64,000 nt of DNA from Candidatus Daviesbacteria bacterium (lineage in GTDB: Bacteria; Patescibacteriota; Microgenomatia; Daviesbacterales; UBA10151). The stretch lies in the NCBI GenBank assembly GCA_016184225.1, contig JACPDA010000004.1:70800-134799 (forward strand), given 5' to 3'. Shown one piece after another: positions 2,869-36,910 of this stretch. The number at the start of each line of letters is the position of its first letter. The stretch's first letter is position 1. Made by a program: the position numbers and the translations under genes. The notes beneath the pieces are model-generated. The model made no database searches and was not told the origin of the DNA. It worked only from the letters and a program-made list of their open reading frames with translations.

Positions 2869-2873
2869 AATTT

Positions 2874-3254
2874 TTAGGCTGCTTTTCTAAATAGCCTCCC
2901 TTTTAGCATTGAAATTGGTGTTCTTCCTTGTGCAGTTCGAATGTGAGTTGTGTCATTGGTGCCGCCAAACACTTCCTGAATCGTGCTTCCTACTGTATGA
3001 GTAACATCTGCCAATTTAATATCTGGTTCTGCGCCTACCCTTTCGGCTCTAGCCTGCTTTAAGGCTTGGCTGTCTGGGATGGGTTGGGTAGCATGGGGAG
3101 TTGCTTCATTTGTTGTGAAAGAAGGACCTATTTTCTTCTGGACATGTTGCACCACACGCTCTCTCCATTTTCTTTCCTGCGTCGGCAGATGCACAATCTT
3201 AGCGTTTTCTCCAGTTGGTATGCTTTGAATTTCTGTGGGAGCAGGTCCTGCCAT
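2874..3254 (-). CDS. hypothetical protein
   Basis: 126-aa ORF directly upstream of the VirD4-like gene on the same strand; no recognisable motifs. Confidence 0.3.
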   Translation of the reverse strand: MAGPAPTEIQSIPTGENAKIVHLPTQERKWRERVVQHVQKKIGPSFTTNEATPHATQPIPDSQALKQARAERVGAEPDIKLADVTHTVGSTIQEVFGGTNDTTHIRTAQGRTPISMLKGRLFRKAA

Positions 3255-3277
3255 AACAGTATTATCTCACATTCTGA

Positions 3278-3640
3278 CTACCGGACAAATATCACCTTAC
3301 CGATAATCTCCGACTGATCAATCAGACCGAAGTTCCTGCTGTCAGTACTATACCTTGCATTATCACCTATCAAATATACTTTATTACCCTCCACTTTCTG
3401 AATTCTTTTGACTATTTCACTTTGCACTTTGAACTTTGCACTTTGCACTATTACCATATCCCCTTTTTTTGGTTTGGAAAAAATATATGCCCAGTTAAAA
3501 CACAACACGTCCTGACCGGATCTTAGGGTTGGAAACATACTGTTACCATGAATCGTAAATCTCTGAATAGGAAAAATATTCATCACCAGACTATTTCTTT
3601 GTCTGCTCAAAAACTTCTGCAATTTTATCCACCGCTTCAA
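3278..3640 (-). CDS. sodX: S26-family signal-peptidase-like protease, probable NiSOD maturation peptidase
   Basis: GNSMFPTL...GD.V...GDN..S.DSR motif set; overlaps and follows sodN in an operon. Confidence 0.55.
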   Translation of the reverse strand: MKRWIKLQKFLSRQRNSLVMNIFPIQRFTIHGNSMFPTLRSGQDVLCFNWAYIFSKPKKGDMVIVQSAKFKVQSEIVKRIQKVEGNKVYLIGDNARYSTDSRNFGLIDQSEIIGKVIFVR

Positions 3641-4034
3641 TTAACTCCGCTGCCTTACCTTCATCCACTGTCCTTTTATTTTCAGAACAAAGCTTAGTTA
3701 CCTTCCAGACTAAATCATGCAAATTAGGAAACTTTTCTAAATGTTCAGCCTTAAAATAATCTGTCCAAAGAATTAAAATTTCTCTTTTGCAAAGTTCGGC
3801 ATGATCCTCCTTCACTCTAGTGAGTCTGGAGATTTGAGAGATAATCTTTTTTCTTTCATCAAAAGGGGGCTCGGAGACGCTTGGTTGCAACTCATTTATG
3901 AGTGAAACCATCTTTAGCACTGTCTTGGCAGCCAGTTGTGCAGCGTGGGGATCATAAATCCCGCAAGGAATATCACAATGGGCCAAAACCACTCTGGTTG
4001 GCAGAAGCCTGATTACTAACTTCATTAAATCCAT
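3591..4034 (-). CDS. sodN: nickel superoxide dismutase precursor
   Basis: N-terminal leader followed by the Ni-hook HCDIPCGIYDP (canonical HCDLPCGVYDP); size about 147 aa. Confidence 0.8.
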   Translation of the reverse strand: MDLMKLVIRLLPTRVVLAHCDIPCGIYDPHAAQLAAKTVLKMVSLINELQPSVSEPPFDERKKIISQISRLTRVKEDHAELCKREILILWTDYFKAEHLEKFPNLHDLVWKVTKLCSENKRTVDEGKAAELIEAVDKIAEVFEQTKK

Positions 4035-4049
4035 AAATCAATTATACAC

Positions 4050-5069
4050 TCACCCGCCGTTACCTTCTGTAGGCAATTTCATTGCTTCCAAGTACTCCTC
4101 GATATCAAAAGCTGCTTTACATCCCGCCCCGGCCGCTGTAACTGCCTGTCTATATCTATAATCTGCCAAATCACCTGCTATAAAAACCCCGGGAATTTTT
4201 GTCCGGGTTTCACCCTCAACAACTACATAACCTTTTTCATTTAGTTCCAGTTGTTCTTTTAAAAAATCCGTATTAGGCTTGTGGCCTATCGCCACAAAGA
4301 GTCCGTCAATTGGGAGTTCGCTAATCTGTCCGGTTTGAGTATTCTTTAACTTCACTCCGGTTACTTTTTCCTGTCCCAACACTTCTACTACCTCAGTATT
4401 CCAGACAAATTCCACATTTGGTTTTGTCTTCACCAACTCCGCCAAAACCGGTTGGGCTCTTAAAACATCTCTCCTGTGAATAATGATGACTTTTTGGCAG
4501 AGTTTAGCAAGATAATTCGCCTCCCTCATAGCAGTATCCCCTCCTCCCACTACTGCCACTACCTTACCTTTAAAGAAAAAGCCGTCACAAACAGCACAGG
4601 CAGATACACCTTTACCACGTAGTCTTTGTTCGGAATCCAATCCAAGCCACATGGCTGAAGCTCCGGTAGCGATAATCAAGCTGTCAGCTGTCAGTCGTCG
4701 GCTTTCAGACTGAATCACAAAAGGTTTAGCCTTTAAATCTACCGAGACAACATCCTCATTAATAAACCTGGTATTAAACCGTTCGGCTTGTTTTCGCATC
4801 TTGGCCATCAACTCCGGACCCTGGATGCCCTCTTCAAAACCCGGAAAGTCATCCACATCAGTAGTCAGCGTCAGTTGCCCGCCTGCTTCTCTACCGGCAA
4901 TAACTAGTGGATTTAAATTCCCACGGGCAGCGTAAATAGCAGCTGTTAAGCCTGCCGGACCAGAACCCACGATGATTAATTTCTCAACTTCAGCCTGAGA
5001 TCTGTTCATTATATGTATTTTAACAGATGGTTTAATCTTCCGGTTTATCAGCACCACTTCGTCTATCAC
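4050..5069 (-). CDS. trxB: thioredoxin-disulfide reductase
   Basis: FAD motif IIVGSGPAGLTAA; redox-active CAVCDG; NADPH motif VVGGGDTA; FIAGD. Confidence 0.85.
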   Translation of the reverse strand: MIDEVVLINRKIKPSVKIHIMNRSQAEVEKLIIVGSGPAGLTAAIYAARGNLNPLVIAGREAGGQLTLTTDVDDFPGFEEGIQGPELMAKMRKQAERFNTRFINEDVVSVDLKAKPFVIQSESRRLTADSLIIATGASAMWLGLDSEQRLRGKGVSACAVCDGFFFKGKVVAVVGGGDTAMREANYLAKLCQKVIIIHRRDVLRAQPVLAELVKTKPNVEFVWNTEVVEVLGQEKVTGVKLKNTQTGQISELPIDGLFVAIGHKPNTDFLKEQLELNEKGYVVVEGETRTKIPGVFIAGDLADYRYRQAVTAAGAGCKAAFDIEEYLEAMKLPTEGNGG

Positions 5070-5340
5070 TCCCAGTTGGACTTGAGGTAGGACTCGAAGT
5101 TGGACGCGGTGAGGCGGTCCGTTGCACTGCTCCCCTTGTTGCTTCCTTGCCCGAAGGTGTAGCAGATGGACTGGCTGTTGAAGTTACTTCCGGTGTTGGT
5201 GTAACCTCCTGCACTTGCTCCTCTAGCTGAGGAGAAACAGTCGGAGCAACCCTACTTCGAAGCCATACCAAATATCCGGCGATAACCACTAACACCAGTA
5301 AAACTACTACAATTGAAACATTTCTATTCATTCTCTTCAC
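5032..5340 (-). CDS. hypothetical membrane-anchored Pro/Ser/Thr-rich protein
   Basis: N-terminal TM helix followed by a low-complexity PTS-rich tail. Confidence 0.3.
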   Translation of the reverse strand: MKRMNRNVSIVVVLLVLVVIAGYLVWLRSRVAPTVSPQLEEQVQEVTPTPEVTSTASPSATPSGKEATRGAVQRTASPRPTSSPTSSPTGSDRRSGADKPED

Positions 5341-22969: not shown

Positions 22970-23042
22970 CGCGCCCGGCGGGACTCGAACCCACAACCGC
23001 ATCGTCCGCAACGATGTGCACGATCCATTGTGCTACGGGCGC
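22970..23042 (-). tRNA. tRNA-Arg (anticodon GCG, unusual for bacteria)
   Basis: GCGCCCG-TA-GCAC-AATGGATC-GTGC-A-CATCG-TTGCGGA-CGATG-CGGTT-GTGGG-TTCGAGT-CCCGC-CGGGCGC-G; perfect 5-bp anticodon stem; no encoded CCA. Confidence 0.55.
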
Positions 23043-23108
23043 AATATGGGTATTCTAGCACGAATGAGATTGCCACGGCCACTGCGTGGCCTCGCAATGA
23101 CAGAATGA

Positions 23109-23666
23109 TTAACGATGCACGTTTTCCAGCGGTAAATGCTTCTGCAGCGATTCTGACCACTTTTCCATCCATGATTTATAAGGCTTTTCGTGAAATGGTA
23201 AAAAGCGGGCTACTGTCTTTTTTATCTTTTCTTCATCCTCCTTGCCTAACACTAACATCAGTTGAGTCGGAAACCTCAGTAGTGTTTGGATATGCAAAAC
23301 TTTTAAACCGTCTTTTTCCTTAAACCAAAACGAATCTAAAAAATGCCAGAAATAAAAATCCTCCCCAATGGTAATGCCTTGGGTAGAAATCTGGTAAGTG
23401 ATGTTATGTGGCGGGACAAAGGCCAAAACATAGGTCACAAAAGCAAAAGAAGCTATTACTCCAATCAGTAAAAAATCCTGCAGCCAAAAGAAAACAACCA
23501 AAACCAAAAATATGGCTAAAACAGCAATAGTAGTGTAATAAGAACGGTCTTTTTTTCTAAAAGGCCGGGCCGGCGCTTCCCAGGAAAGCAAAGTCTTAAT
23601 TTCCTCCGTTTCCATCATCTTGGGAGTAAAAAATTCCAGTGGATTTTGTTTTTTTTCTTTGGGCAT
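23109..23666 (-). CDS. hypothetical membrane protein (two central TM helices)
   Basis: 185 aa; hydrophobic core IAVLAIFLVLVVFFW...IGVIASFAFVTYVLAFV. Confidence 0.35.
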   Translation of the reverse strand: MPKEKKQNPLEFFTPKMMETEEIKTLLSWEAPARPFRKKDRSYYTTIAVLAIFLVLVVFFWLQDFLLIGVIASFAFVTYVLAFVPPHNITYQISTQGITIGEDFYFWHFLDSFWFKEKDGLKVLHIQTLLRFPTQLMLVLGKEDEEKIKKTVARFLPFHEKPYKSWMEKWSESLQKHLPLENVHR

Positions 23667-23842
23667 TTGTTTTTAGTTTAACTTTAAAAGAGTTTTATGT
23701 AAAGATGCGGTGCCTAGTCGACTATGTTGGAAATTATTTCAAGGAACAATTAGAGCAAATTGCTACTCCTTTTCCTCAAGTCAAACCGGCACTTGTTTAC
23801 TCTAAATTATAGCAGAAGTGAAGCCCAAAATAAGTTATGTAC

Positions 23843-24502
23843 TCACCACATTACCCTTGCTTGTACCAATTGTTGCAAATTAAATAGGTGTTGTGCAAAA
23901 TCTCGCCGTTCAACCGACCATATGCAATTTTGCAACCCACTGCCTACTCCAAAGTACACTTTTGCTCCAACTAGTTTACCATTTTTTACAAGAAGCGACG
24001 CACGATGCGTACCATCAATAATTGTTAATGGTGTACTTTGTTTGTTTGATGAAATTATTACAATATCATCGGTTTTTAAATCAGCAAGCTTTGACATAAT
24101 TTCTATCTTATTATGGTGGTGTACAACCACGGGAGGCTCATTATTTAAGCGATAACCCCTATTTTGTGATAGGTGCTTAGGTACATTAGCTACCTTGAAC
24201 GTACTACCTGTATCAAGATACCAGTCAAAGACTGGCAAGATAAATATACTGTCAACATCGATGCTTTCAATTTCGGCTTCAAACCAGTCTAAAGAACTTG
24301 GAATCTCATTTAGTATGGCGCTTCTACCATAAACGTTAAATATTAAATTTTCTCGCTCATTATTTTCTTGAGGGCTATTTAAATCGGGTTGTTCTATAAG
24401 CTTAATTTGCTCGCTTGTAAGACTGGGTTTCATACGAAAAAGCTCGCTTTTTAGCCAAGCAGCATGCATATGATGTTTTGTAGTTGGTTTAACTATTTTC
24501 AT
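23843..24502 (-). CDS. hypothetical protein with ParB/Srx-like DGxHR motif
   Basis: ...TPLTIIDGTHRASLL... Confidence 0.3.
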   Translation of the reverse strand: MKIVKPTTKHHMHAAWLKSELFRMKPSLTSEQIKLIEQPDLNSPQENNERENLIFNVYGRSAILNEIPSSLDWFEAEIESIDVDSIFILPVFDWYLDTGSTFKVANVPKHLSQNRGYRLNNEPPVVVHHHNKIEIMSKLADLKTDDIVIISSNKQSTPLTIIDGTHRASLLVKNGKLVGAKVYFGVGSGLQNCIWSVERRDFAQHLFNLQQLVQARVMW

Positions 24503-24628
24503 TAGCGGATATTATAGCGTATATACAGGAGAAAAATGCTAAAATAGTAGAAGTAATTCATAAAGGGGTAACTGCTTGCCATGAAGGCACACAGGACGCC
24601 ACAGGGGCTAAAAGGAGGCTGTTAGGTT

Positions 24629-25189
24629 ATGAGTGATAAACCAGTGAGAGAAAATATAAGACAGCATCAGGCATTTCTGGCATACAGCAGCATGTCTGAT
24701 CCTTCAGTTCAAAACATGTGGGAAACATGGGGGAAAATAGGGGGGCTTTCGGAATATAAAAGACCCTCATTTAGAACTTTGGAGTTATGGTGCACTAAAT
24801 ACCAATGGGTAGAAAGGTCTCAGGCCATCCATCAGGCGGCAAAAGAGGAGGCAATAAAGAAGGTTATCGCTAATCTAACAATGGGGAAAGAGGAAATTTT
24901 GGCGATCACCCGGGCTATCATGATCCGCTTTGGTCAGCAGTTGCAGGAAAATACACAAGGGAGACTTACCATCTCGGACTTTGAGAAGGCATGGAAAATT
25001 CAAAGGATAGAGCTGGGTCTACCAACAGAGATTGGAAACCAAGAGGTTGTTGTAAAAGACAGCTATGCAGGAGTAAGTGACGAGGATCTCATTTTGCAAC
25101 TTGAGACCTTAACAGCCAAATATAAACAGAGTTTGTTACTTCGTAATAAAGAAAGGCTTAATAAATCTGGCCACTTGCAATCGTCTTGA
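24629..25189 (+). CDS. hypothetical protein (island-encoded; only a weak resemblance to phage small terminase / DNA-binding proteins)
   Basis: 186 aa; lone plus-strand gene; no firm motifs. Confidence 0.3.
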   Translation: MSDKPVRENIRQHQAFLAYSSMSDPSVQNMWETWGKIGGLSEYKRPSFRTLELWCTKYQWVERSQAIHQAAKEEAIKKVIANLTMGKEEILAITRAIMIRFGQQLQENTQGRLTISDFEKAWKIQRIELGLPTEIGNQEVVVKDSYAGVSDEDLILQLETLTAKYKQSLLLRNKERLNKSGHLQSS

Positions 25190-25269
25190 CAAGTGGTATA
25201 GTTAAATTAACTTAAGCTCTCTGTAAGTGAAAGCAGGCTTCATGCCTTGCGCGAGGAAACTCGTCTAGC

Positions 25270-26052
25270 TTACAGGGGGCTTATTTTAGTAACATCAAAT
25301 TTATTCTTTGAGTGATAAAAGTTCTTGGGATAAATATCTGTATCGTAAATATCAACTAAATAACGTATTTTATCTCCGATAAATTTATAGAACCTCATAT
25401 CTTGCTTGATAAACGCCCTTTGTATTGCCCAATTTACATAATCAATAACTTGTAAACATGGTTCGCCTGATGGGGATTGTGGATTCACTTTAACTGAGGA
25501 TTCTACCTTTTTGCCCCATTTTTTCTCAAAGCTTTGGATTGCTTTTTGAATTGCATTTTCCAGCGGAATTTGACGGGTCTTACTGCCCCTCACGGCAAAG
25601 AAAATTTCATTATGTTTTGATAAGTGAATCTTATTTTCAAATAATTTACTTACTAAGTCGTCATAAAACTCACTCTCGTTTTTATGATGTTTTTTGTTAA
25701 AGATATTTTTAATTTTTCTTGCAACAAAAATTTCAGCTGTAAAATCCAGTTTAACGATTGTTCTATAGACTCTTTCACGAACTTCTGCGCAGTCATCCTT
25801 TGCATGGAAAGATACTGCGCTTTTTTGAAGAGAAGGAATACCCTCTAAATATTCATCGGAGGCAATTTCTTTCCTTAAATTTTCAAGTTTCTGCCTAATT
25901 GTCCTGGGATCATCTGTTTTAATAAACCCAAGAATAAGAATTTTAGAGACACCTTCTTGACCGACGATATAATTGCCATATCTATCGTAAAAAGTTGGAT
26001 CCCCGGATTCATCAACAAAAAAATATGTAGTTTTCTCCTGTAATTTTTTCAT
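25270..26052 (-). CDS. DUF3800-family protein
   Basis: N-terminal ...TYFFVDESGDP... and C-terminal ...CLQVIDYVNWAIQRAF... match the DUF3800 signature positions. Confidence 0.5.
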   Translation of the reverse strand: MKKLQEKTTYFFVDESGDPTFYDRYGNYIVGQEGVSKILILGFIKTDDPRTIRQKLENLRKEIASDEYLEGIPSLQKSAVSFHAKDDCAEVRERVYRTIVKLDFTAEIFVARKIKNIFNKKHHKNESEFYDDLVSKLFENKIHLSKHNEIFFAVRGSKTRQIPLENAIQKAIQSFEKKWGKKVESSVKVNPQSPSGEPCLQVIDYVNWAIQRAFIKQDMRFYKFIGDKIRYLVDIYDTDIYPKNFYHSKNKFDVTKISPL

Positions 26053-26110
26053 TTAAGTAAAAGTGTTAGTTAAAATAATCTAGATTCTTGACCAGTAATT
26101 TCCTCCTGGC

Positions 26111-27205
26111 TCACTTCTTCCTCAGGCGTTGTATATATTCTTTATTAGGATCTTTTATATCTAGGTTCCTATAAAATTTTTCTGTCTCAGAGTGAAATTT
26201 ATGTATTAGCGATACCATCCTCGGGTTACCTTTTATTCTCTCTTTTATTTCAAGTACCTTGGTGTTTCTAATAAATTCTGTAATCTCGTCTATTTTTTTA
26301 AAAAATGAATCTCCAGTTTCAGGTCGATCAGCATATAGCTTCTCTTTAGCTGCTTGAACAGCATCTTCAGGGGTAGATTGCAAAAACTCCTTACGAGCAG
26401 GCTTACTTTTAAGAATCTCCGCTAAATCTTTTTTTACATCATAGGCAGCAGATCTAATTCTTTCCTCTAGTACCCAATTAATAAATTTCTCATTACTTAG
26501 AATTTCTGGATTTTCTCTGGCTATGCTCTGAAGCTCCGAACTCTTAAAATATTCTTCAAATATGCTGAATTTTTTTAATTGTTCTTTTTCATCTAATCCA
26601 GCAAGTTCAGTAAGTTTAGGTAAGTAACCATCTCTCATCAATTCATAAGCCTTTAGTTGAATTTTGATAGCACTAGCTGTCATACCTACAATTGCGGCTA
26701 CATAATCTATATCCATTCTATTTTCATTAATCATTCTATAGATATAACTAGCCTTTTCATAAGGATCCCAGGGAGCTTTACCTTTTATATGTAGATTTCC
26801 AAGAAGTAAAAATAGATCTTCATCGCTTATCTTAGAAAGTATTACTTTAGCTCTAATTTTCCTCCAATTTTCTTTTTGTTCAGCTGGACTGTCTCTATAG
26901 ATGTACCTATAAGCACAAAGTCTACGGTTACCCTCTATCACCTGATTACCCATAACAAATACCTCTTCCATCAATCCACCATTTTTTCTGATATCATCAG
27001 CCAAAACTTTAGTTGAATCTAGTCTCCAGAGATTTTCTTCAATTTTAGTTTGATCCAAAGAATCTCCATATTTGCTCAACACATAATTCATTCTAGGGTT
27101 CTGTGGGTAATAATTTAACTCGAATATATCAATTTCCCTAATCTCAGTAGGTATTTTTCTGTCACCAATAACAATATTTTCTGAAGTGTCTGTTAAATCA
27201 GGCAT
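26111..27205 (-). CDS. ParB/Srx-fold protein of DGQHR/DUF262-like type (paralog A)
   Basis: ...VIEGNRRLCAYRYI... plus a shared block KAPWDPYEKASYIY. Confidence 0.45.
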   Translation of the reverse strand: MPDLTDTSENIVIGDRKIPTEIREIDIFELNYYPQNPRMNYVLSKYGDSLDQTKIEENLWRLDSTKVLADDIRKNGGLMEEVFVMGNQVIEGNRRLCAYRYIYRDSPAEQKENWRKIRAKVILSKISDEDLFLLLGNLHIKGKAPWDPYEKASYIYRMINENRMDIDYVAAIVGMTASAIKIQLKAYELMRDGYLPKLTELAGLDEKEQLKKFSIFEEYFKSSELQSIARENPEILSNEKFINWVLEERIRSAAYDVKKDLAEILKSKPARKEFLQSTPEDAVQAAKEKLYADRPETGDSFFKKIDEITEFIRNTKVLEIKERIKGNPRMVSLIHKFHSETEKFYRNLDIKDPNKEYIQRLRKK

Positions 27206-27206
27206 A

Positions 27207-28616
27207 TTAATGCAAAAGTTCGATTATTTCCTCCTTAGTCAAGTAACTACTTTCGTCAATTTTATCTGTATCTCCCTGTATTACTCTTGCTATGTCTTGT
27301 TTCTTGATTAATTTATCTTCGATAAAAAGGTCAATAGTATTTTGAGCTACTAACTTGATTATATTACATCTTTTATCCTGAGAAATCCTATGGATTCTAT
27401 CTTGTGATTGAAGATAGTCAACTAGATTAAAGGATCTATCTATATAGATAGCATTATTTGCAGCTGTTAATGTAATCCCCTCCCTTGCAGCTGCAGGATT
27501 AGCCACCATTACTCTGTAATCAGGATCTTCTTGAAATAACTGAATAAATTTATTTCTTTCTAATATTGGTATCTCTCCATGTATATTTAAAGAACCGAAT
27601 CCTCTATACCTATTCCTTAAAGTCTTTACATTCCCTACAAAGGACGACCAAATGATTACTTTTTCGTTCGATTCCATAATTTCTTTTAATAGCTCATCGA
27701 GTTTTGTAAACTTACAAGGTACTTCTTGATAGTCAGGTATTAACAAACCTGGATTACTTGCGACCTGAACAAGTCTTAGAAGCTTCTTGAGAATTGCTTT
27801 TGCTTCGTCAATAATTACTCTTTCGTCAGTATTTACAATTTCTATTAGTAGCTCTTCCTTTAACTTCCTATAGATCTCATTTTGCCTGGGTGATAGCTCT
27901 ACTAAAACTGTTTTATATACTTTTTCAGGCAACTCCAAGACATCATCCTTCAGTCTCCTAATAGATTTAGGTCTAATCTTCGTTTGAAGTTCAGCAAGCT
28001 TTTCTTTTGTTAAGCTGGAATCTTTGTAATTTTTTTTAAAAGCACCAAAATCTTCCCCTAAAGTTTTACCCCCATCCAAAAAATAGAATTGAGACCATAA
28101 ATCTATCGCCTTATTAGCTACAGGAGTTCCAGTTAAAATAATTCTTCTCGATACAAGTTCTCTCACTGCATTAATGGCTTTAAAAGTTTGGCTATCGGGA
28201 TCCTTTATGCGTTGAGATTCATCTAAAACTATTAAACATTTTCTAGCTTCAAGTAACAATTTAATAATATCTAGTTCTGCCTTAACTCCCTCGTAATTTA
28301 TAATGTACATGTTGGCAAAAGAGAGAAATTTATAACCTTTCGTCTTGCCTGCCCCTTCAATAACTACTGGAATTAGATAACTATGTTTCTTAATTTCGTT
28401 CTGCCAGACATACATCAATGTTTTGGGGCATATTATTAAAACTGCTTCTGACCTCTTTTGTTTAAGAATTGTTATAACTGCATCGATAACCTCTTTAGTT
28501 TTACCTACTCCCTGTTCGTCAAATAAGGCTGCCTCACTTTTCTGTACTAGAAAATTTGTAGCTTCTAATTGATGAGGAAGAGGAGATGTTTTAGCTTTAT
28601 ATAACGTTTTCTTCAT
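27207..28616 (-). CDS. SNF2/SWI2-family helicase (SF2 ATPase)
   Basis: motif I DEQGVGKT; motif II LVLDESQRIKD; III ILTGTPVAN; C-terminal helicase domain ...QSQDRIHRISQ... Confidence 0.8.
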   Translation of the reverse strand: MKKTLYKAKTSPLPHQLEATNFLVQKSEAALFDEQGVGKTKEVIDAVITILKQKRSEAVLIICPKTLMYVWQNEIKKHSYLIPVVIEGAGKTKGYKFLSFANMYIINYEGVKAELDIIKLLLEARKCLIVLDESQRIKDPDSQTFKAINAVRELVSRRIILTGTPVANKAIDLWSQFYFLDGGKTLGEDFGAFKKNYKDSSLTKEKLAELQTKIRPKSIRRLKDDVLELPEKVYKTVLVELSPRQNEIYRKLKEELLIEIVNTDERVIIDEAKAILKKLLRLVQVASNPGLLIPDYQEVPCKFTKLDELLKEIMESNEKVIIWSSFVGNVKTLRNRYRGFGSLNIHGEIPILERNKFIQLFQEDPDYRVMVANPAAAREGITLTAANNAIYIDRSFNLVDYLQSQDRIHRISQDKRCNIIKLVAQNTIDLFIEDKLIKKQDIARVIQGDTDKIDESSYLTKEEIIELLH

Positions 28617-29013
28617 AAGGTAAAAGCCTGTCTGGTACAGGTAAAATAATTAAATTTTCGTCGTTAACCCCCAGATCTTTAATGATCTTTTGAAACTTAT
28701 CCTGTACTGACATCGGGATCCCAAAAAAAACCTGATGCCCAATTTGGTTAGACCAATTTGTATCATTAGTAAAATCTTGGAGTTGCTCCAGTGTTCTGAC
28801 AGTTAAATCGTCTGCTGTTTTTGCTTCACCTATTGCTACACCGTTTGGTTTTATTCCAATTAAATCTGGTCTGTGTCTTAGAATTTTTGGAGGCAGCTTT
28901 AGCTTTATTGCCTCTACTTCGCTAGCACCTTCAAAACCCACTACTTCATAGCCTTCTAGATTCATTCGTCTCGCTATTAAATCTGCAATAAACTGATGAG
29001 CTTTCGATGCCAT
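28597..29013 (-). CDS. small PD-(D/E)xK nuclease-fold protein
   Basis: ...RPDLIGIKPNGVAIGEAKT... (D...E-x-K); 138 aa; overlaps the SNF2 gene by 20 nt. Confidence 0.4.
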   Translation of the reverse strand: MASKAHQFIADLIARRMNLEGYEVVGFEGASEVEAIKLKLPPKILRHRPDLIGIKPNGVAIGEAKTADDLTVRTLEQLQDFTNDTNWSNQIGHQVFFGIPMSVQDKFQKIIKDLGVNDENLIILPVPDRLLPYEENVI

Positions 29014-29024
29014 CCATTCGCCTC

Positions 29025-30035
29025 CTATTCTACTACCGACTTAGTCACTACAATTAACTTTTTAAGAAGATCTTTCTTTGCTGGTTCTTCTTCTCTAATC
29101 AAATTAATTTCATATTGCCTCAAGTTTTGAAGCTGATCAATTACTTTTTCAACATCTCTAAATAAGGGTGAAGCTACGTCAGGCTTTATAGTGGCTAATA
29201 AGTCCATTGCTGTTTCATATCCTTTATCCTTAAAGACTTTGGCTACTTCTTCATTAGAAAATATCTCTGGCAGATCTCTTACATCAATAGCCCTAGGAAT
29301 TCTTTCTTCCGCCACCCACCGACAAAAATCGTCTATTGAAAAAACTCTAGTTATTTCTAAATTGCGAACCTTCTTTTTGCCTACAAGCTCTACAAAATAG
29401 CTATATTTACTAACAGGATTATCTAAGTTATCTCCATACTTAGCTAAAAAGTGATCATGCATTATCTTAAATGCTGCTAAATCATTTTTTATTTCTGTCT
29501 CTTTACTTCTAGTCTCTCGTGCTAACCTTGCAGTGGGATAACCTTTTTGATTTAAGGTATATAAATATCTAGCTCTTTCATAAGGGTCCCATGGTTGTTT
29601 ACCGCCCAAGTGAAATTCGAGCCTAAGAAAAGCTATAACTTCCTCTGAAGTATCTGGGGGTAAAATTCGTGCTTCTATTGTCTGCCATTCAGTATCATGA
29701 GGGTACTTATCATATAACTCATCGAATATTAGTTTCCTGGTATTACCCTCTATGACTACATACTTCCCGTTTTTTTCAAAAACCCAGATTGGCTCAAGCA
29801 ACCCCGCTGTCTCTATAGACTCTTTGAGAGAATCATAGTTAGTTTTAGTTTTCACCCTTTGTCCAAGCTTTAATTTAGCCTGTGTTATTTCGTCGTCTTT
29901 TACTCCTCGTGCATACTCACTGTCAATTAAGAACTGGATTCTAGGATTTTCCTTATCTAACTCTATGAGTTCTAACGGAATTTTATGAAGGGGAGCTTTG
30001 CTTATAAGAGCTGTGAGGTATTTAGATTTACTCAT
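29025..30035 (-). CDS. ParB/Srx-fold protein of DGQHR/DUF262-like type (paralog B)
   Basis: ...VVIEGNTRKLIFDEL... plus the shared block KQPWDPYERARYLY. Confidence 0.45.
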   Translation of the reverse strand: MSKSKYLTALISKAPLHKIPLELIELDKENPRIQFLIDSEYARGVKDDEITQAKLKLGQRVKTKTNYDSLKESIETAGLLEPIWVFEKNGKYVVIEGNTRKLIFDELYDKYPHDTEWQTIEARILPPDTSEEVIAFLRLEFHLGGKQPWDPYERARYLYTLNQKGYPTARLARETRSKETEIKNDLAAFKIMHDHFLAKYGDNLDNPVSKYSYFVELVGKKKVRNLEITRVFSIDDFCRWVAEERIPRAIDVRDLPEIFSNEEVAKVFKDKGYETAMDLLATIKPDVASPLFRDVEKVIDQLQNLRQYEINLIREEEPAKKDLLKKLIVVTKSVVE

Positions 30036-30046
30036 AAGAATTCTTT

Positions 30047-31420
30047 TTATTTACGTTTACAAATGAGCAGGTATTCGTTAACTATATGGTTTCCTCGCCC
30101 ATTATGCTTAAAGCGAGATCCTTGGGCAGAGTGATTATAACCGTTCTTTTTATCTATGATCTCGTAATATTGACTGGCTATCTCTATTAGTTTATCGACG
30201 GGTTTCAATAAACTATTATCCGAATAGCTTATAGCCAAGGTTGCATCGGTGCTGGAAGATATTATACCAAACATTTCCTGAAATGCTTCTTCTACTTTGC
30301 TTGTATGGGAAAAGGAGGATTGATAACGATCATCTCTATAACCCCCCTTCACTGGTGTAGTTTTTGCCCGATCTAGAGTGAGCGTAGGATAATCATACCT
30401 AACCAAAGTCTCCGGGATATGGTAAAAGCGACTGTATTGTGCATTTGTGTAAGGAGGGTCAATATAAATTAGTTTCACCCCGTTTATTTCACCATCCTTG
30501 GCCATTTGTTTAACGAGATCTTTGTAATCATAATTATAAACTTTGTTTTCCCATCTTTTTTGAAGATAGACATTGCCAAAATCCAATAATTTATTTTGGA
30601 ACTCCGAGACAATCGATATGGCACGTTGCTTAAGTAATAAGTCTTGTGCGCTTAACGAATTTTGATTCAAATATTCTGCGAAGTGTCCACTACTATTGAC
30701 CGCCTTGCTCATGGCAAACATTAAACAACTTAGATACAGGGCTTGTTTGTCTTTGTCTGATATTTGATCTATTGCATATCGCAAACTATCTATTTCGGCG
30801 CACTGTTTAAGGCTAAAAAAGGTATTCGAGTAGTAGATGGCGAAGAGTAAATAGGGGAAGCTTTTTTTGGCAACCCTTCTTTTATCTATAAATTGTTTAC
30901 TAAAATAGGGTGCTAGTTTGTATTCATCGGAGGTAACGCCTCTGCCGTAAATGGGTATTTTGAGGAAGAACTTCTTGTACTCGTCAAAACTCCCCTTATT
31001 TACTAATCTTTGTTCATCTTCGATTGCTTTGCCAAATATATCAGTAAGCTGATCAAGATTTTTGTCGTAATACTTACTCAGAGTGTCATTAAAATCGTTT
31101 TCTCTAATTTGTTCATTAAATTGAAGTAGTGCCCTTGATATTACTGCGGAGTATCCTTGAATATCATTTGCAATAATTCTCGCCTTTGGCTTCATTGCGT
31201 ATCCAATTGAAGAAGTTCCAGCAAACAAGTCTAGCACTGTATCTCCTAAGTCTAAGTATTCCTCTAAGAGAGGTACTAACCAATTTAGTAGCCTTCTTTT
31301 ATTACCCATATATTTAAGGATTTGCATTTGAGGGTATTGACCGTATGAAAAGTTTTTAGCTAGTGAAACTTGTGGGAATAGTATTGCCTGTGGATATATA
31401 AAGGATGCCATTAGTTCCAT
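30047..31420 (-). CDS. D12-class (Dam-like) N6-adenine DNA methyltransferase with long inserted region
   Basis: YMGNKRRLL (D12 signature), motif I DLFAGTSS, motif IV IYIDPPY. Confidence 0.75.
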   Translation of the reverse strand: MELMASFIYPQAILFPQVSLAKNFSYGQYPQMQILKYMGNKRRLLNWLVPLLEEYLDLGDTVLDLFAGTSSIGYAMKPKARIIANDIQGYSAVISRALLQFNEQIRENDFNDTLSKYYDKNLDQLTDIFGKAIEDEQRLVNKGSFDEYKKFFLKIPIYGRGVTSDEYKLAPYFSKQFIDKRRVAKKSFPYLLFAIYYSNTFFSLKQCAEIDSLRYAIDQISDKDKQALYLSCLMFAMSKAVNSSGHFAEYLNQNSLSAQDLLLKQRAISIVSEFQNKLLDFGNVYLQKRWENKVYNYDYKDLVKQMAKDGEINGVKLIYIDPPYTNAQYSRFYHIPETLVRYDYPTLTLDRAKTTPVKGGYRDDRYQSSFSHTSKVEEAFQEMFGIISSSTDATLAISYSDNSLLKPVDKLIEIASQYYEIIDKKNGYNHSAQGSRFKHNGRGNHIVNEYLLICKRK

Positions 31421-32547: not shown

Positions 32548-32850
32548 TTGTTATTTTTGCCTCTTTGTATCTGTGATAGCGTGCTTGGTAACATGAGCAT
32601 TAGCAAAGATTTTCCTCGCAACCTTTTTGCCACCTATGATATTGGGCTCTCTTCTGTATTGCTTAGTTTAGGTTTTGCTTTAGATTCTCTTGATAAAACC
32701 AATCCTCAAAAAGTTCAGTTTATCTTCCAAAAAAATAAGGGTTTAGCTGAAGCGATCCAAGCGTATTGGGCTAAAAGATTAACCCTTGAACCGCAGACAC
32801 TCTTGGCAAATCTCAAACTTTTAAAGAACAGGTTGTATTCAGATGAATAG
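32548..32850 (+). CDS. hypothetical small protein
   Basis: 100 aa; start overlaps the next ORF. Confidence 0.3.
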   Translation: MLFLPLCICDSVLGNMSISKDFPRNLFATYDIGLSSVLLSLGFALDSLDKTNPQKVQFIFQKNKGLAEAIQAYWAKRLTLEPQTLLANLKLLKNRLYSDE

Positions 32851-33028
32851 CTATGGCACGAAGGGCTGGCTAAATGAAGATCTTAAAAAAGAGATTAAGA
32901 AGGTTTTTGAGCCTCGTTATAAGAGATCCTTAACTGATGAGGAGGTAACTGTGATAGCCGAAAACCTGACAGAGGTTATGGAGGCCTTTTTGAAGATGAA
33001 ATGGAAACAAAAATATGGACAACCTTGA
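32843..33028 (+). CDS. hypothetical small protein
   Basis: 61 aa; translationally coupled overlaps on both sides. Confidence 0.25.
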   Translation: MNSYGTKGWLNEDLKKEIKKVFEPRYKRSLTDEEVTVIAENLTEVMEAFLKMKWKQKYGQP

Positions 33029-33476: not shown

Positions 33477-35033
33477 ATGAATATAAACGGCGAGCAATTA
33501 AAATATTTTATCTACTGTAGAAAATCCTCGGATGATGAGGATAGGCAAATTTTGTCAATCGAGAGCCAAATAAGAGAGCTTAAAGAGTACGCACTAAAGT
33601 ATAATTTACAAGTAGTAGATATATTAACTGAGAGTAAAAGCGCACATTATCCCGGGCGTGAGGTATTTGATGAGATGTTAGTGCATATTAAAAGTGGCGA
33701 GGCTAATGGTTTGCTGGTTTGGCATGCTAACCGTATTGCCCGCAACTCAAAAGATGGTGGTGAGGTTATCTGGCTTATGGATAGTGGAGTAATTGCGCAA
33801 ATTGATACCCCCGGTAAGCAGTATCTCAATACTCCTGATGATAAGTTTTATTTAAGTTTAGAGTTCAGTATGGCTAAAAAGTCATCGGATGATTTAAGTG
33901 TTGTAGTTAAGCGAGGTATAAGACAAAAATATGAGCGCGGTGAATATCCCAACTTTGCCCCTATTGGTTACATCAATACAAAAATAAATGGAGTAACTAA
34001 TATCTCCCCTGATCCGGAGCGCAAAGATTTGGTTATTAAACTCTTTAACGAATACTCAACCGGCAAGTATTCTCTTGGTCAAATGGCTGAACTGATATTC
34101 ACCTGGGGACTTCGGACCCGCAGAGGTAAGCCTGTTAGTAAATCGCATCTCCACCGGATCCTTAAAAATCCGATATATTACGGTGTTTATGAACATGCAG
34201 GAGAGTTACACAATGGAACATACGAACCTCTTATCTCAAAACGTCTGTTTGATGATCTACAGGTAGTCTTACATAATAAGGCCAAGCCGAAAAAGATTAA
34301 CAACGACTGGCCATATGCTGCGCTTTTGAAATGCGGATGCGGATGCGGAGCTTCAATCATCTTTGAAACCAAGCGCAAGTATTATAAGAAGACTGACCGC
34401 TGGGCAGAATATACTTATGCCCGCTCAAGTAAAAGGTGTAGTAAGTGTACTCAAAAGGGAATAGATCTGGCTGAACTTGAGCGTCAGCTGGATGAAAAAA
34501 TTGCCCCTGTTACTATTGATGAAGAAACATGGCGTTTAGGTATTAAACTGCTCAATACCAAGTATGAATCAGAGGCAAAGCAACGGGCACAGGTGGTGGA
34601 AAGCCGGCAAAGGCAGTATCAAAGGTTACAAGGCGAGCTGGATGGCTATTTCAAGATGCGGGCCCGGGAGGAAATGACTGCTGATGAGTTTACCACCAGG
34701 AAAAAGGCCATCTTTGATGAGCAGGCAAAATTAAAAGAAAAAATAGATGACGGATTAAACGGCCAGCGCAGCTGGTTGGAACTTGCTGAAGATTTCTTTA
34801 CAACAGCCTATCAGGCACGGGAGATGCTAAATAGTGATGATTTAGAGGCAAAACGCAGGGCAGTTGCAAAGATCGGTTGGAACGTCTTGCTAAAAGACGA
34901 AAAGCTTGTCTGGACGTACCAAAAGCCTTATGACATACTGCTTAAACCTCAATACCGTTCTGACCTGCGGAGGCGGCAGGATTCGAACCTGCGAGCCCTT
35001 TCGAGCCAATGGTTTTCAAGACCATCTCCATAA
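33477..35033 (+). CDS. large serine recombinase (resolvase catalytic domain + recombinase domain + zinc ribbon)
   Basis: YCRKSSDDEDRQILSIESQ (nucleophile Ser), ...LLVWHANRIARN..., CGCGCGASI...C zinc ribbon; the last roughly 22 codons run into the tRNA-Ser on the opposite strand. Confidence 0.85.
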   Translation: MNINGEQLKYFIYCRKSSDDEDRQILSIESQIRELKEYALKYNLQVVDILTESKSAHYPGREVFDEMLVHIKSGEANGLLVWHANRIARNSKDGGEVIWLMDSGVIAQIDTPGKQYLNTPDDKFYLSLEFSMAKKSSDDLSVVVKRGIRQKYERGEYPNFAPIGYINTKINGVTNISPDPERKDLVIKLFNEYSTGKYSLGQMAELIFTWGLRTRRGKPVSKSHLHRILKNPIYYGVYEHAGELHNGTYEPLISKRLFDDLQVVLHNKAKPKKINNDWPYAALLKCGCGCGASIIFETKRKYYKKTDRWAEYTYARSSKRCSKCTQKGIDLAELERQLDEKIAPVTIDEETWRLGIKLLNTKYESEAKQRAQVVESRQRQYQRLQGELDGYFKMRAREEMTADEFTTRKKAIFDEQAKLKEKIDDGLNGQRSWLELAEDFFTTAYQAREMLNSDDLEAKRRAVAKIGWNVLLKDEKLVWTYQKPYDILLKPQYRSDLRRRQDSNLRALSSQWFSRPSP

Positions 35034-35052
35034 ACCGCTCGGACACGCCTCC
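34968..35052 (-). tRNA. tRNA-Ser (anticodon UGA)
   Basis: GGAGGCG acceptor; ATGGT-CTTGAAA-ACCAT; long variable arm GGCTCGAAAGGGCTCG; GCAGG-TTCGAAT-CCTGC. Confidence 0.7.
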
Positions 35053-35057
35053 TTAAG

Positions 35058-35141
35058 CGGTGGGTACAGGATTCGAACCTGTGTGACATTTCTGCCAGCA
35101 GTTTAGCGAACTGCCCCCTTAAGCCACTCGGGCAACCCACC
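35058..35141 (-). tRNA. tRNA-Ser (anticodon GCU)
   Basis: GGTGGGT acceptor; GCAGT-TCGCTAA-ACTGC; long variable arm; CAGG-TTCGAAT-CCTG. Confidence 0.7.
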
Positions 35142-36010: not shown

Positions 36011-36425
36011 TGGTGGAGATGTCGGCTGTGAGCCGAGTCCAAAATTGTGACTAAAAAAACTTCTACAAGCTTAGCTAATTAATTTTTATTCATTAGTTGT
36101 AACCAATTAGCAGGAAAACTAATGAATGATCAAACTTATCTTTAAGTTAATACTGATCGATCAAAATTGTATTAACAGCATCCTGACTGGGTACATACTT
36201 TAGGTTCTAGCCAGAAAAAGAATTCCTAAAATAGATGCTTTAAGCTACTGCAAATCTGGGAGCGTAAGCTGAACCAAAAAGGTCAGCTACGATACCAGCA
36301 GCCATTGCTTTGGCATCACGGACAAGTTTATTGCCGTTTGTGTTTTGAAACAATATTTAACGCTTAATGTTTCCTAAGCGGCTTGCAGTTTTTAAAGAGC
36401 AATCCTGTCGAAACTATACATCCCC
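36011..36425 (-). ncRNA. ssrA: tmRNA (ssrA), about 415 nt
   Basis: 5' end GGGGATGTATAGTTTCGACAGGATTGC (canonical GGGGCUGAUUCUGGAUUCGACGGGAUUUGCG); 3' end ...TCGG-CTCACAG-CCGA-CATCTCC-A-CCA; adjacent to smpB; open tag frame ending ...YAPRFAVA-TAA. Confidence 0.65.
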
Positions 36426-36463: not shown

Positions 36464-36910
36464 TTACTCCTTCCCTCTTAACTCCTGCTCCACTCTGCGG
36501 GCATGGTCTTTTTCTTTAAGGATCTTCCTATGGTCAAATTCTTTCTTAGATTTGGCCAAGCCTACTTCTACCTTAAACCGGTTATTTTTCTCATACATAG
36601 ATACCGGCACTAAAGTCACACTTTTCCCGGAGACTTTTCCAATCAATGAGTTAATTTGATCTTTATGAAGCAATAACTTCCTGGACCTTTGGGCATCATA
36701 TTCTTTATCCGCAGCTTGATTATACCGGGGGATATTGGCATTTATCAAAAACGCTTCCCCATTCAGCACCCTGATATGGCTCTCTCCCAGATCTAATCTG
36801 CCGGCCCTGATGGATTTGACTTCAGCACCTGAAAGCACTATCCCAGCCTCTATATGTTCGAGAATGTGATAATTATGAAGGGCTTTTTTGTTAATAATGC
36901 GCATAGTCAT
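36464..36910 (-). CDS. smpB: SsrA-binding protein
   Basis: ...LSGAEVKSIRAGRLDLGESHIRV... with the C-terminal basic tail. Confidence 0.9.
   Translation of the reverse strand: MTMRIINKKALHNYHILEHIEAGIVLSGAEVKSIRAGRLDLGESHIRVLNGEAFLINANIPRYNQAADKEYDAQRSRKLLLHKDQINSLIGKVSGKSVTLVPVSMYEKNNRFKVEVGLAKSKKEFDHRKILKEKDHARRVEQELRGKE

Follow-up and report, generated by a model that had tools for sequence, protein, structure and literature searches.

What is encoded by a compact run of six co-oriented genes in the genome of a Candidatus Daviesbacteria bacterium? The run lies on the minus strand at 31420-25270 of a 64,000-nt stretch of contig JACPDA010000004.1 (positions 70,800 to 134,799 of the forward strand; assembly GCA_016184225.1). 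We refer to this whole stretch as the window and give coordinates within it. A first-pass annotation had proposed an undescribed defence module resembling restriction-modification (RM) systems, made up of an adenine methyltransferase (MTase), two ParB-like paralogs, a small nuclease, an SNF2 helicase and a DUF3800 protein. The parts list holds for a conserved cassette of five genes, but the DUF3800 gene turned out to be a separate module. The data show which domains the proteins contain, that catalytic residues and gene order are conserved and that one module is exchanged; from these we infer the defence function and each of the activities. With moderate confidence, we read the five genes as a self-contained, horizontally mobile RM-like defence cassette. 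We rate it as an RM-like system with a new architecture, the individual domains of which are all known building blocks of conflict systems.

When the open reading frames (ORFs) and motifs of the window were read again, the six genes, their spacing and their motifs were found as first described. In the direction of transcription, they encode a D12-type MTase (30047..31420, 457 aa), ParB1 (29025..30035, 336 aa), a standalone PD-(D/E)xK nuclease (28597..29013, 138 aa), a minimal SNF2-family ATPase/translocase (27207..28616, 469 aa), ParB2 (26111..27205, 364 aa), and the DUF3800 protein (25270..26052, 260 aa), all on the minus strand. Spacers of 11 nt separate the MTase gene from ParB1 and ParB1 from the nuclease gene; the nuclease and SNF2 genes then overlap by 20 nt, and the last two spacers measure 1 nt (SNF2 to ParB2) and 58 nt (ParB2 to the DUF3800 gene). 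YMGNKRRLL, DLFAGTSS and DPPY were located in the MTase, EGNTR in ParB1 and EGNRR in ParB2, together with the shared block GKxPWDPYExAxYxY (GKQPWDPYE in ParB1 and GKAPWDPYE in ParB2), and RHRPDLIG...IGEAKT in the nuclease. The domain calls were likewise correct: D12, SNF2 and DUF3800 were recovered with Pfam, and the ParB and nuclease folds by structure prediction.

Four of these genes recur as a fixed unit. Homologs of ParB2 formed 37 clusters with strikingly uniform contexts, and the order ParB1-nuclease-SNF2-ParB2 was kept in about 36 of 41 loci from species-representative genomes. The loci that keep this order come from the candidate phyla radiation (CPR), Brocadia/Planctomycetota, Nitrospirota, Desulfobacterota (delta-proteobacteria), Spirochaetota, Ignavibacteria, Acidobacteriota, Chloroflexota, Clostridia, and two archaea. 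In a metagenome sample of 80 loci, anchored on the nuclease alone and counted wherever a locus had enough sequence, ParB1 lay immediately upstream of the nuclease in 65/65 cases and SNF2 immediately downstream in 64/64, followed by ParB2 in 45/45. In the window and in the five other loci checked, the end of the nuclease gene overlaps the start of SNF2 by 8-26 nt. Such an arrangement cannot be put down to chance, because more than 100 independent contigs show the same gene order. The first-pass annotation had let its proposal depend on homologs being co-localised in other genomes, and they are. Cultured carriers exist as well, namely Rhizobium leguminosarum WSM1325 (plasmid pR132505) and Bradyrhizobium sp. 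187 (p187_1). The core is flanked by a mixed set of genes, among them MADS genes, RM MTases, an OLD-like ATPase, toxin-antitoxin pairs, integrases and plain metabolic genes, with no replication or transfer backbone common to the flanks. Beside the cassette of one locus (L054, 1-4518), we found an OLD-like ATPase-TOPRIM protein (AAA_15/AAA_21/OLD-like_TOPRIM), a ParB_N-N6_N4_Mtase fusion and a further N6_N4 MTase, which looks like a defence-island context.

Ortholog alignments showed that catalytic or ligand-binding residues are conserved in all four core proteins. The 138-aa protein had no match in Pfam or NCBIfam, and searches of solved structures with sequence profiles of the nuclease, ParB2 and the radical SAM family described below returned nothing significant, so that only fold comparison was informative. 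By this comparison, the protein is predicted to have a restriction-endonuclease fold, most like that of restriction and nicking endonucleases. Its model contains the alpha-beta-beta-beta-alpha-beta core with the D...(D/E)xK triad, and the full catalytic set is kept (H6, RHRPD50, E63-A-K65). The nuclease is also found in a few fusions, which are 270-340-aa proteins with unrelated N-termini; in three of them (P0248, P0275 and P0300; 333-340 aa, rich in Ala, Gly and Arg) the nuclease domain is C-terminal to an unrelated N-terminal region.

The assignment of the motor to the SNF2 family rests on Pfam matches to SNF2-rel_dom (1.9e-38) and Helicase_C (1.5e-14), both above the gathering thresholds. 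All of its helicase motifs are intact, and motifs Q, I (G36-G38-K39), II (D132-E133-S134), III and VI (Q405-D406-R407-H409-R410) are conserved among 38 orthologs. PADLOC models for known defence helicases matched only in their helicase portions (ZorD 9.5e-57, DpdE 5e-39, DrmD 2e-18).

The two ParB-like proteins are true paralogs, as had been claimed, with 27% identity over 316 residues (E 7e-28). Both belong to the ParB/Srx superfamily, and both families keep three motifs: N-P-R, [E]-G-N-x-R, and an H..K..W..E block. In ParB1, N30-P31-R32, E96-G97-N98-x-R100, H142, W149 and E153 are at least 93% conserved among 37 orthologs; in ParB2, N36-P37-R38, E91-G92-N93-x-R95, H139, K143, W146 and E150 are invariant in the ortholog alignment. 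Pfam detected only a sub-threshold ParB_N domain in ParB1 (0.008; the ParB_N and parB_part matches cover residues 59-100), and neither Pfam nor NCBIfam matched ParB2 (HYU45_00745, 100% identity). The structure of ParB2 predicted with AlphaFold from 26 homologs reached a pLDDT of 86, and its top Foldseek matches were Noc, CTP/CDP-bound ParB and KorB over about 240 columns. The match takes in the ParB N-domain and the helix-turn-helix (HTH) domain and thus extends beyond the Srx-like core; a helical C-terminal domain follows. According to this model, the ParB-like proteins are predicted to fold as ParB/Noc/KorB (N-domain plus HTH) and not as DndB/DUF262, and no DUF262 or DUF1524 match was found for either paralog. 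The earlier label "ParB/DGQHR-like" is therefore apt for the motif, since [DE]-G-[NQ]-x-R is of the DGQHR/DGQQR type, but not for a DndB- or DUF262-like fold. Compared with ParABS, Noc and KorB, which carry GERRxR at box II, the proteins have E-G-N-x-R; we take this motif to sit at ParB box II, with Asn in place of the catalytic Glu.

Relatives of the ParB pair were also looked for in phages and among defence models. ParB1 matched phrog_3694 (3.5e-13), and its N-terminal ~200 residues resemble a protein of P2-like enterobacterial phages at 26-27% identity, a similarity confined to the N-terminus. ParB2 had no match in phage genomes. The ParB1-like protein is encoded by Yersinia phages L-413C and HQ103 and by Escherichia phage vB_EcoM-12474 (records H9-H17), near the genome end in L-413C and HQ103; these phage genes are probably of the PD-lambda-5 type. 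In PADLOC, the paralogs also weakly matched part of PDC-M38A.

While the four-gene core is constant, the gene for a modification-type enzyme beside it is exchangeable. Such an enzyme, either an MTase or a radical S-adenosylmethionine (SAM) protein, was present in 32/32 metagenome loci with enough flanking sequence. Clustering of flanking genes showed that in most loci a ~450-aa protein directly follows ParB2. It has a C-x3-C-x2-C radical SAM core (C[IV]R[RK]CxFC) and a B12-binding-like N-domain, and its gene adjoins the core in most loci of L006-L136 (for example at 4187-5551 in L014 and 13081-14712 in L050). A profile search revealed no close relative of this family that is solved, named or characterised. 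We consider it a candidate writer of a DNA modification not yet described. In several clades, the radical SAM gene is accompanied by a DGQHR/DpdB-like protein (DpdB models 2e-33 to 3e-36), and a 278-aa protein, a metallo-beta-lactamase-fold protein and a GHKL ATPase are possible extra companions. Two Chloroflexota/Dehalococcoidia loci (L041 and L042) have neither SNF2 nor nuclease, and in them a solitary ParB-like gene stands next to radical SAM genes belonging to the same cluster; this arrangement hints that the link between ParB and radical SAM proteins is older than the full cassette.

The MTase form is a minority variant of the cassette. In the clade of the window, a DNA MTase abuts ParB1 in 12/12 loci and the radical SAM gene is mostly absent. 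The MTases belong to three non-orthologous families: the long D12 type (window, L051, L052, L054, L055 and L057), a Dam-family type (TIGR00571 4e-67; L001, L002, L005, L056 and L059), and an N6_N4 type (L053). In L002 and L053 the MTase gene is divergently transcribed. Displacement of MTase families at one core is a pattern typical of RM systems, and the radical SAM protein in place of the MTase in most relatives points to the self-mark as an exchangeable module. The MTase of the window matches Pfam MethyltransfD12 (2e-20) and PADLOC MTase_II (1e-33) and is predicted to be an N6-adenine DNA MTase of alpha-type motif order, with a large insert separating motif I (DLFAGTSS) from motif IV (DPPY). 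Orthologs occupy the same place before ParB1 in L051 (61% identity), L052 (63%), L054 (49%), L055 (33%) and L057. The long D12 MTase thus diverges in step with the core (33-63% identity in the four aligned), which indicates co-inheritance.

The simplest reading of a constant translocase and nuclease, encoded by overlapping genes, together with two constant proteins bearing nucleoside triphosphate (NTP) pockets and a variable SAM-using enzyme, is RM logic. Judging from its family and its intact FxGxG and DPPY motifs, the adenine MTase would be the self-marking enzyme that marks host DNA, a role taken elsewhere by the radical SAM enzyme. The ParB pair, in which each protein has the set of NTP-pocket motifs and an HTH, probably forms a heteromeric, nucleotide-gated DNA-binding module; it would read the DNA and license attack where the mark is absent. 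The SNF2 ATPase would then translocate on double-stranded DNA, and the 138-aa PD-(D/E)xK nuclease would cut it. Both predicted folds, that of a restriction endonuclease and that of ParB/Noc/KorB, suit the parts assigned to these proteins. The window holds the MTase-type variant of this cassette, on a serine-recombinase island beside tRNA-Ser. Precedents for an RM-like mechanism are provided by the ParB-superfamily sensors (PMC12065111), by PD-lambda-5 (PMC9519451) and by the gene order of Type ISP systems. A bolder proposal, which we regard as possible but tentative, is that the cassette represents an unrecognised RM class. Here, a heteromer of the ParB-CTPase fold would sense or clamp unmarked DNA and license the SNF2-nuclease pair, the radical SAM enzyme would write a new mark in most members, and the lineage of the window would have swapped to N6-adenine methylation.

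Several observations weigh against an RM-like defence cassette. With three MTase families at one core, restriction would need to follow the specificity of each of them, yet the cassette has no evident subunit for target recognition. Strict mutual exclusivity of MTase and radical SAM enzyme was considered and ruled out by L055, an intermediate locus that combines the long D12 MTase with a radical SAM protein (360 aa), a DndB-like protein and a further protein of 323 aa upstream of the core (741-5084). Defence genes occur among the neighbours without dominating. In addition, the SNF2 protein is most similar to phage-encoded helicases (phrog_62, 1.8e-109; about 30% identity with helicases of more than 1200 phage genomes), and pairs of MTase and SNF2 protein are a known counter-defence theme of mobile elements (PMC5512222). 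The last two points would fit a counter-defence or establishment module, an unfused relative of DarB-type proteins in which the methylase and SNF2 protein, perhaps with the ParB-like proteins as nickases, shield the incoming DNA of the element. The MTase-SNF2 dyad and ParB domains indeed recur in polyvalent proteins of phages and conjugative elements (PMC5512222). The cassette is found on related serine-recombinase elements in the window, L001, L005, L051, L073 and the viral contig L046; it adjoins a type IV secretion system in L002, and in L050 it is part of a conjugative plasmid. We nevertheless consider this explanation unlikely. Most loci are of the radical SAM type, and their chromosomal surroundings differ from one to the next. 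Only a few recombinase families recur among the 142 genes flanking the loci (Resolvase/Recombinase in 3, rve integrase core in 2), and none of the 25 recurrent families listed is a phage structural family. The proteins are unfused and in most loci not near virion or transfer genes, and it is hard to see what a dedicated, catalytically intact endonuclease, with its gene overlapping the start of SNF2, would contribute to self-protection.

The same genes could also form a DNA-modification machine without restriction, in which the ParB-like proteins, SNF2 and the nuclease give the modifying enzyme access to duplex DNA. Analogies are DpdB, which serves DpdA, and a phage ParB that activates a T-dioxygenase on double-stranded DNA, where the ParB-dependent 5mYOX acts (PMC13229309). 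DpdB/DndB-like DGQHR proteins inserted beside the radical SAM gene in many loci, and the solitary ParB-like and radical SAM genes of L041 and L042, could be explained in this way. An enzyme that is exchangeable next to a constant four-gene core is, however, the reverse of what such a machine leads one to expect. The nuclease has a complete catalytic set and resembles restriction or nicking endonucleases, and Dam-family MTases, which need no helpers, are present in L001, L005, L056 and L059. We find this explanation somewhat less likely than counter-defence. Still less likely, in our view, is a nuclease-helicase defence that is independent of modification or directed against it (Type IV-like), with the adjacent MTase or radical SAM gene either auxiliary or unrelated to it. 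Modified DNA is indeed recognised by the ParB/DUF262 sensors of GmrSD and SspE (PMC12065111), and the divergent transcription of the MTase in L002 and L053 would suit a mere neighbour. A modification-type gene is nevertheless adjacent in every locus with enough sequence and an MTase in every locus of the MTase type, and the long D12 MTase has diverged together with the core. Finally, the ParB/Noc/KorB-like fold with its HTH, and the location of the window copy on an island, could point to a maintenance, partition or regulatory module of an integrative element, with KorB/ParB-like clamps controlling element genes. We regard this as very improbable, given that no ParA or KorA is encoded among the island genes, that ParA-type families are not recurrent in the 142 flanking genes, that a common replication or partition backbone is missing in contexts that include chromosomal, non-mobile ones, and that the ParB-like genes are strictly linked to a nuclease, an SNF2 motor and a modification enzyme.

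Searches of PADLOC, NCBIfam, Pfam and the literature gave no named system for the RM-like cassette and no paper that describes it. PADLOC assigned none of the genes to one, as the first-pass annotation had anticipated; PADLOC-DB 2.0 (2023) and NCBIfam (2026) hold no models for the ParB paralogs or the nuclease. The architecture also falls outside the textbook layouts, in that the features which define Type I or Type III RM, DISARM, BREX, Dpd and Zorya are missing, as are those of PD-lambda-5 and type VII retrons. No HsdS, HsdM or HsdR match was found with Pfam, NCBIfam or PADLOC in the six proteins and their flanks. In Type III systems, Res combines a ResIII-type superfamily 2 helicase with a fused C-terminal nuclease, whereas here the motor matches SNF2-rel_dom at 1.9e-38 and ResIII only at 6.8e-6. 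Compared with both Type III and Type ISP, the motor is thus of the SNF2 and not the Res/HsdR type, the 138-aa nuclease is separate and encoded upstream of it, the MTase is standalone and exchangeable without a subunit sharing a target-recognition domain, and two ParB-like proteins are added. The replacement of the MTase by Dam, N6_N4 or radical SAM enzymes in relatives argues against an obligate Mod-like subunit. For the order of nuclease and SNF2 genes, the nuclease-before-motor order of Type ISP is a precedent.

Individual parts resemble those of PD-lambda-5 and Dpd. PD-lambda-5 is an anti-phage system validated experimentally in E. coli (PMC9519451). The N-terminal part of its A models (the first 85-110 of 428-578 positions) matches ParB1 and ParB2 at 6e-5 to 5e-3, with values of 1e-4 to 6e-5 for the similarity to their first ~100 residues, to which it is confined, and its B model matches the Dam MTase of L001 at 2e-13 and the MTase of the window at only 2e-3. 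It consists of two genes, however, without SNF2, a separate PD-(D/E)xK gene or a second ParB paralog. With Dpd, the cassette shares the theme of a ParB-like ATPase (DpdB) and an SNF2 protein matching the helicase part of DpdE, and some relatives carry a DpdB-like DGQHR protein. The window, though, has no match to DpdA/TGT, DpdB or DpdC, and DpdC-K are missing; ParB1 and ParB2 fall outside the DpdB models, and the SNF2 protein, at 469 aa, is shorter than the DpdE models with their approximately 1050-1290 positions. An SNF2 helicase and a nuclease also occur together in Class 1 DISARM and Zorya, in DISARM along with an adenine MTase, but in the cassette the nuclease is unfused from the motor. 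Neither DrmA, DrmB (DUF1998) and DrmC (phospholipase D-type nuclease) nor ZorA, ZorB and ZorC were found; the DrmD match of the SNF2 protein is weak, and ZorD is matched only in its helicase part (positions 446-882 of 908). BREX is represented neither by PglZ nor by BrxC or PglX, and only by a weak BrxHI match to the C-terminal part of the helicase (4e-17). ParB-superfamily domains serve as DNA sensors in GmrSD, SspE and Menshen (PMC12065111), in which an NTP-binding domain of this superfamily with a [DE]-G-[QN]-x-R type of motif is likewise followed by a DNA-binding domain; here, the fold is nearer to ParB/Noc/KorB with HTH, there are two paralogs, and the partners differ. The DarB-type polyvalent proteins (PMC5512222) also bring together an adenine MTase and an SNF2 ATPase, in some cases with ParB domains, on mobile elements, but the cassette has unfused genes and a dedicated endonuclease, and most of its members are chromosomal and of the radical SAM type. 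Ophion, which contains radical SAM, PHP and PRTase proteins, was also considered and is unrelated to the cassette.

If confirmed as defence, the cassette would be a widely distributed restriction-like architecture, extending from CPR bacteria to archaea and built on a pair of ParB-fold proteins. A connection between immunity and the CTP-switch ParB fold would follow, and attention would be drawn to a radical SAM family as a possible writer of a new DNA mark. Exchange between MTase and radical SAM modules constitutes a natural experiment on the co-evolution of self-marking and restriction, and the cultured Rhizobium and Bradyrhizobium carriers make the cassette directly testable.

The DUF3800 gene, which had been counted as a member of the module, is adjacent and co-oriented, but none of the other cassette loci examined contains it. 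What follows ParB2 in loci of the MTase type varies (PDDEXK_3, a Cas4-like protein, DUF4357, DUF5677, or none). The DUF3800 family is also far larger in CPR genomes, with more than 1000 clusters (E <=1e-10) compared to 37 for ParB2. Nucleotide homology with two unrelated loci (L137 and L138) runs only from 26053-26064 to 25212, about 57 nt past the stop codon; as the limits of this block lie within the flanking spacers, we regard it as an independent unit of about 850 nt. The absence elsewhere, the family size and the homology limits together rule out DUF3800 as a sixth component. The protein itself matches Pfam DUF3800 (5e-9) and PADLOC DUF3800_VII (2e-31), a model for the effector of type VII retrons. 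A scan of seven neighbouring ORFs, which make up most of the island and do not include two ORFs of 100 and 61 aa at 32548-33028, revealed no reverse transcriptase domain, and Rfam gave neither a DUF3800-associated nor a retron RNA, with no match at 23000-26400 even when E values up to 1 were allowed. On the 3' side of the gene there is a conserved element of about 70 nt, at 25205-25285 on the minus strand, overlapping its stop codon. It has a fold z-score of -2.9, and the consensus of three sequences shows three stems with 4 compensatory pairs and no Rfam match. DUF3800-associated RNA motifs have been reported (PMC5737381), and by analogy this element may be another motif of that kind.

The cassette of the window was said to sit on an integrase-bearing island, and we found a large serine recombinase at tRNA-Ser in a region of low GC content (0.33-0.39 over about 25-34 kb, compared to 0.40-0.48 in most other parts of the window). 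The recombinase gene (33477-35033, plus strand; Pfam Resolvase 2.8e-16, Recombinase 1.3e-12) reaches with its 3' end 67 nt into tRNA-Ser(tga) on the opposite strand (34967-35052, minus), which is followed by a second tRNA-Ser(gct) (region 33477-35141). In a search for attachment sites, direct repeats between the tRNA-Ser and the left side of the island yielded only tRNA-to-tRNA similarity; serine recombinases do not require long repeats. Promoter and terminator scans of the window gave matches no more frequent than in shuffled sequence. A 186-aa ORF at 24629-25189 (plus strand) has a weak likeness to small terminase subunits of phages (phrog_6299, 5.5e-7), and besides it no phage structural genes were found on the island. 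The related genome L138 has this tRNA-Ser 3' of a DUF3800 gene and in inverted orientation with respect to comF/smpB, which suggests a rearrangement at the tRNA-Ser site. The right-hand neighbourhood of the island contains an ORF with a tmRNA gene (Rfam, 100.5 bits) immediately downstream (36011-36425 and 36464-36910, both minus strand). The counterpart of this ORF in the syntenic L138 carries the SmpB Pfam family, marking ordinary host context.

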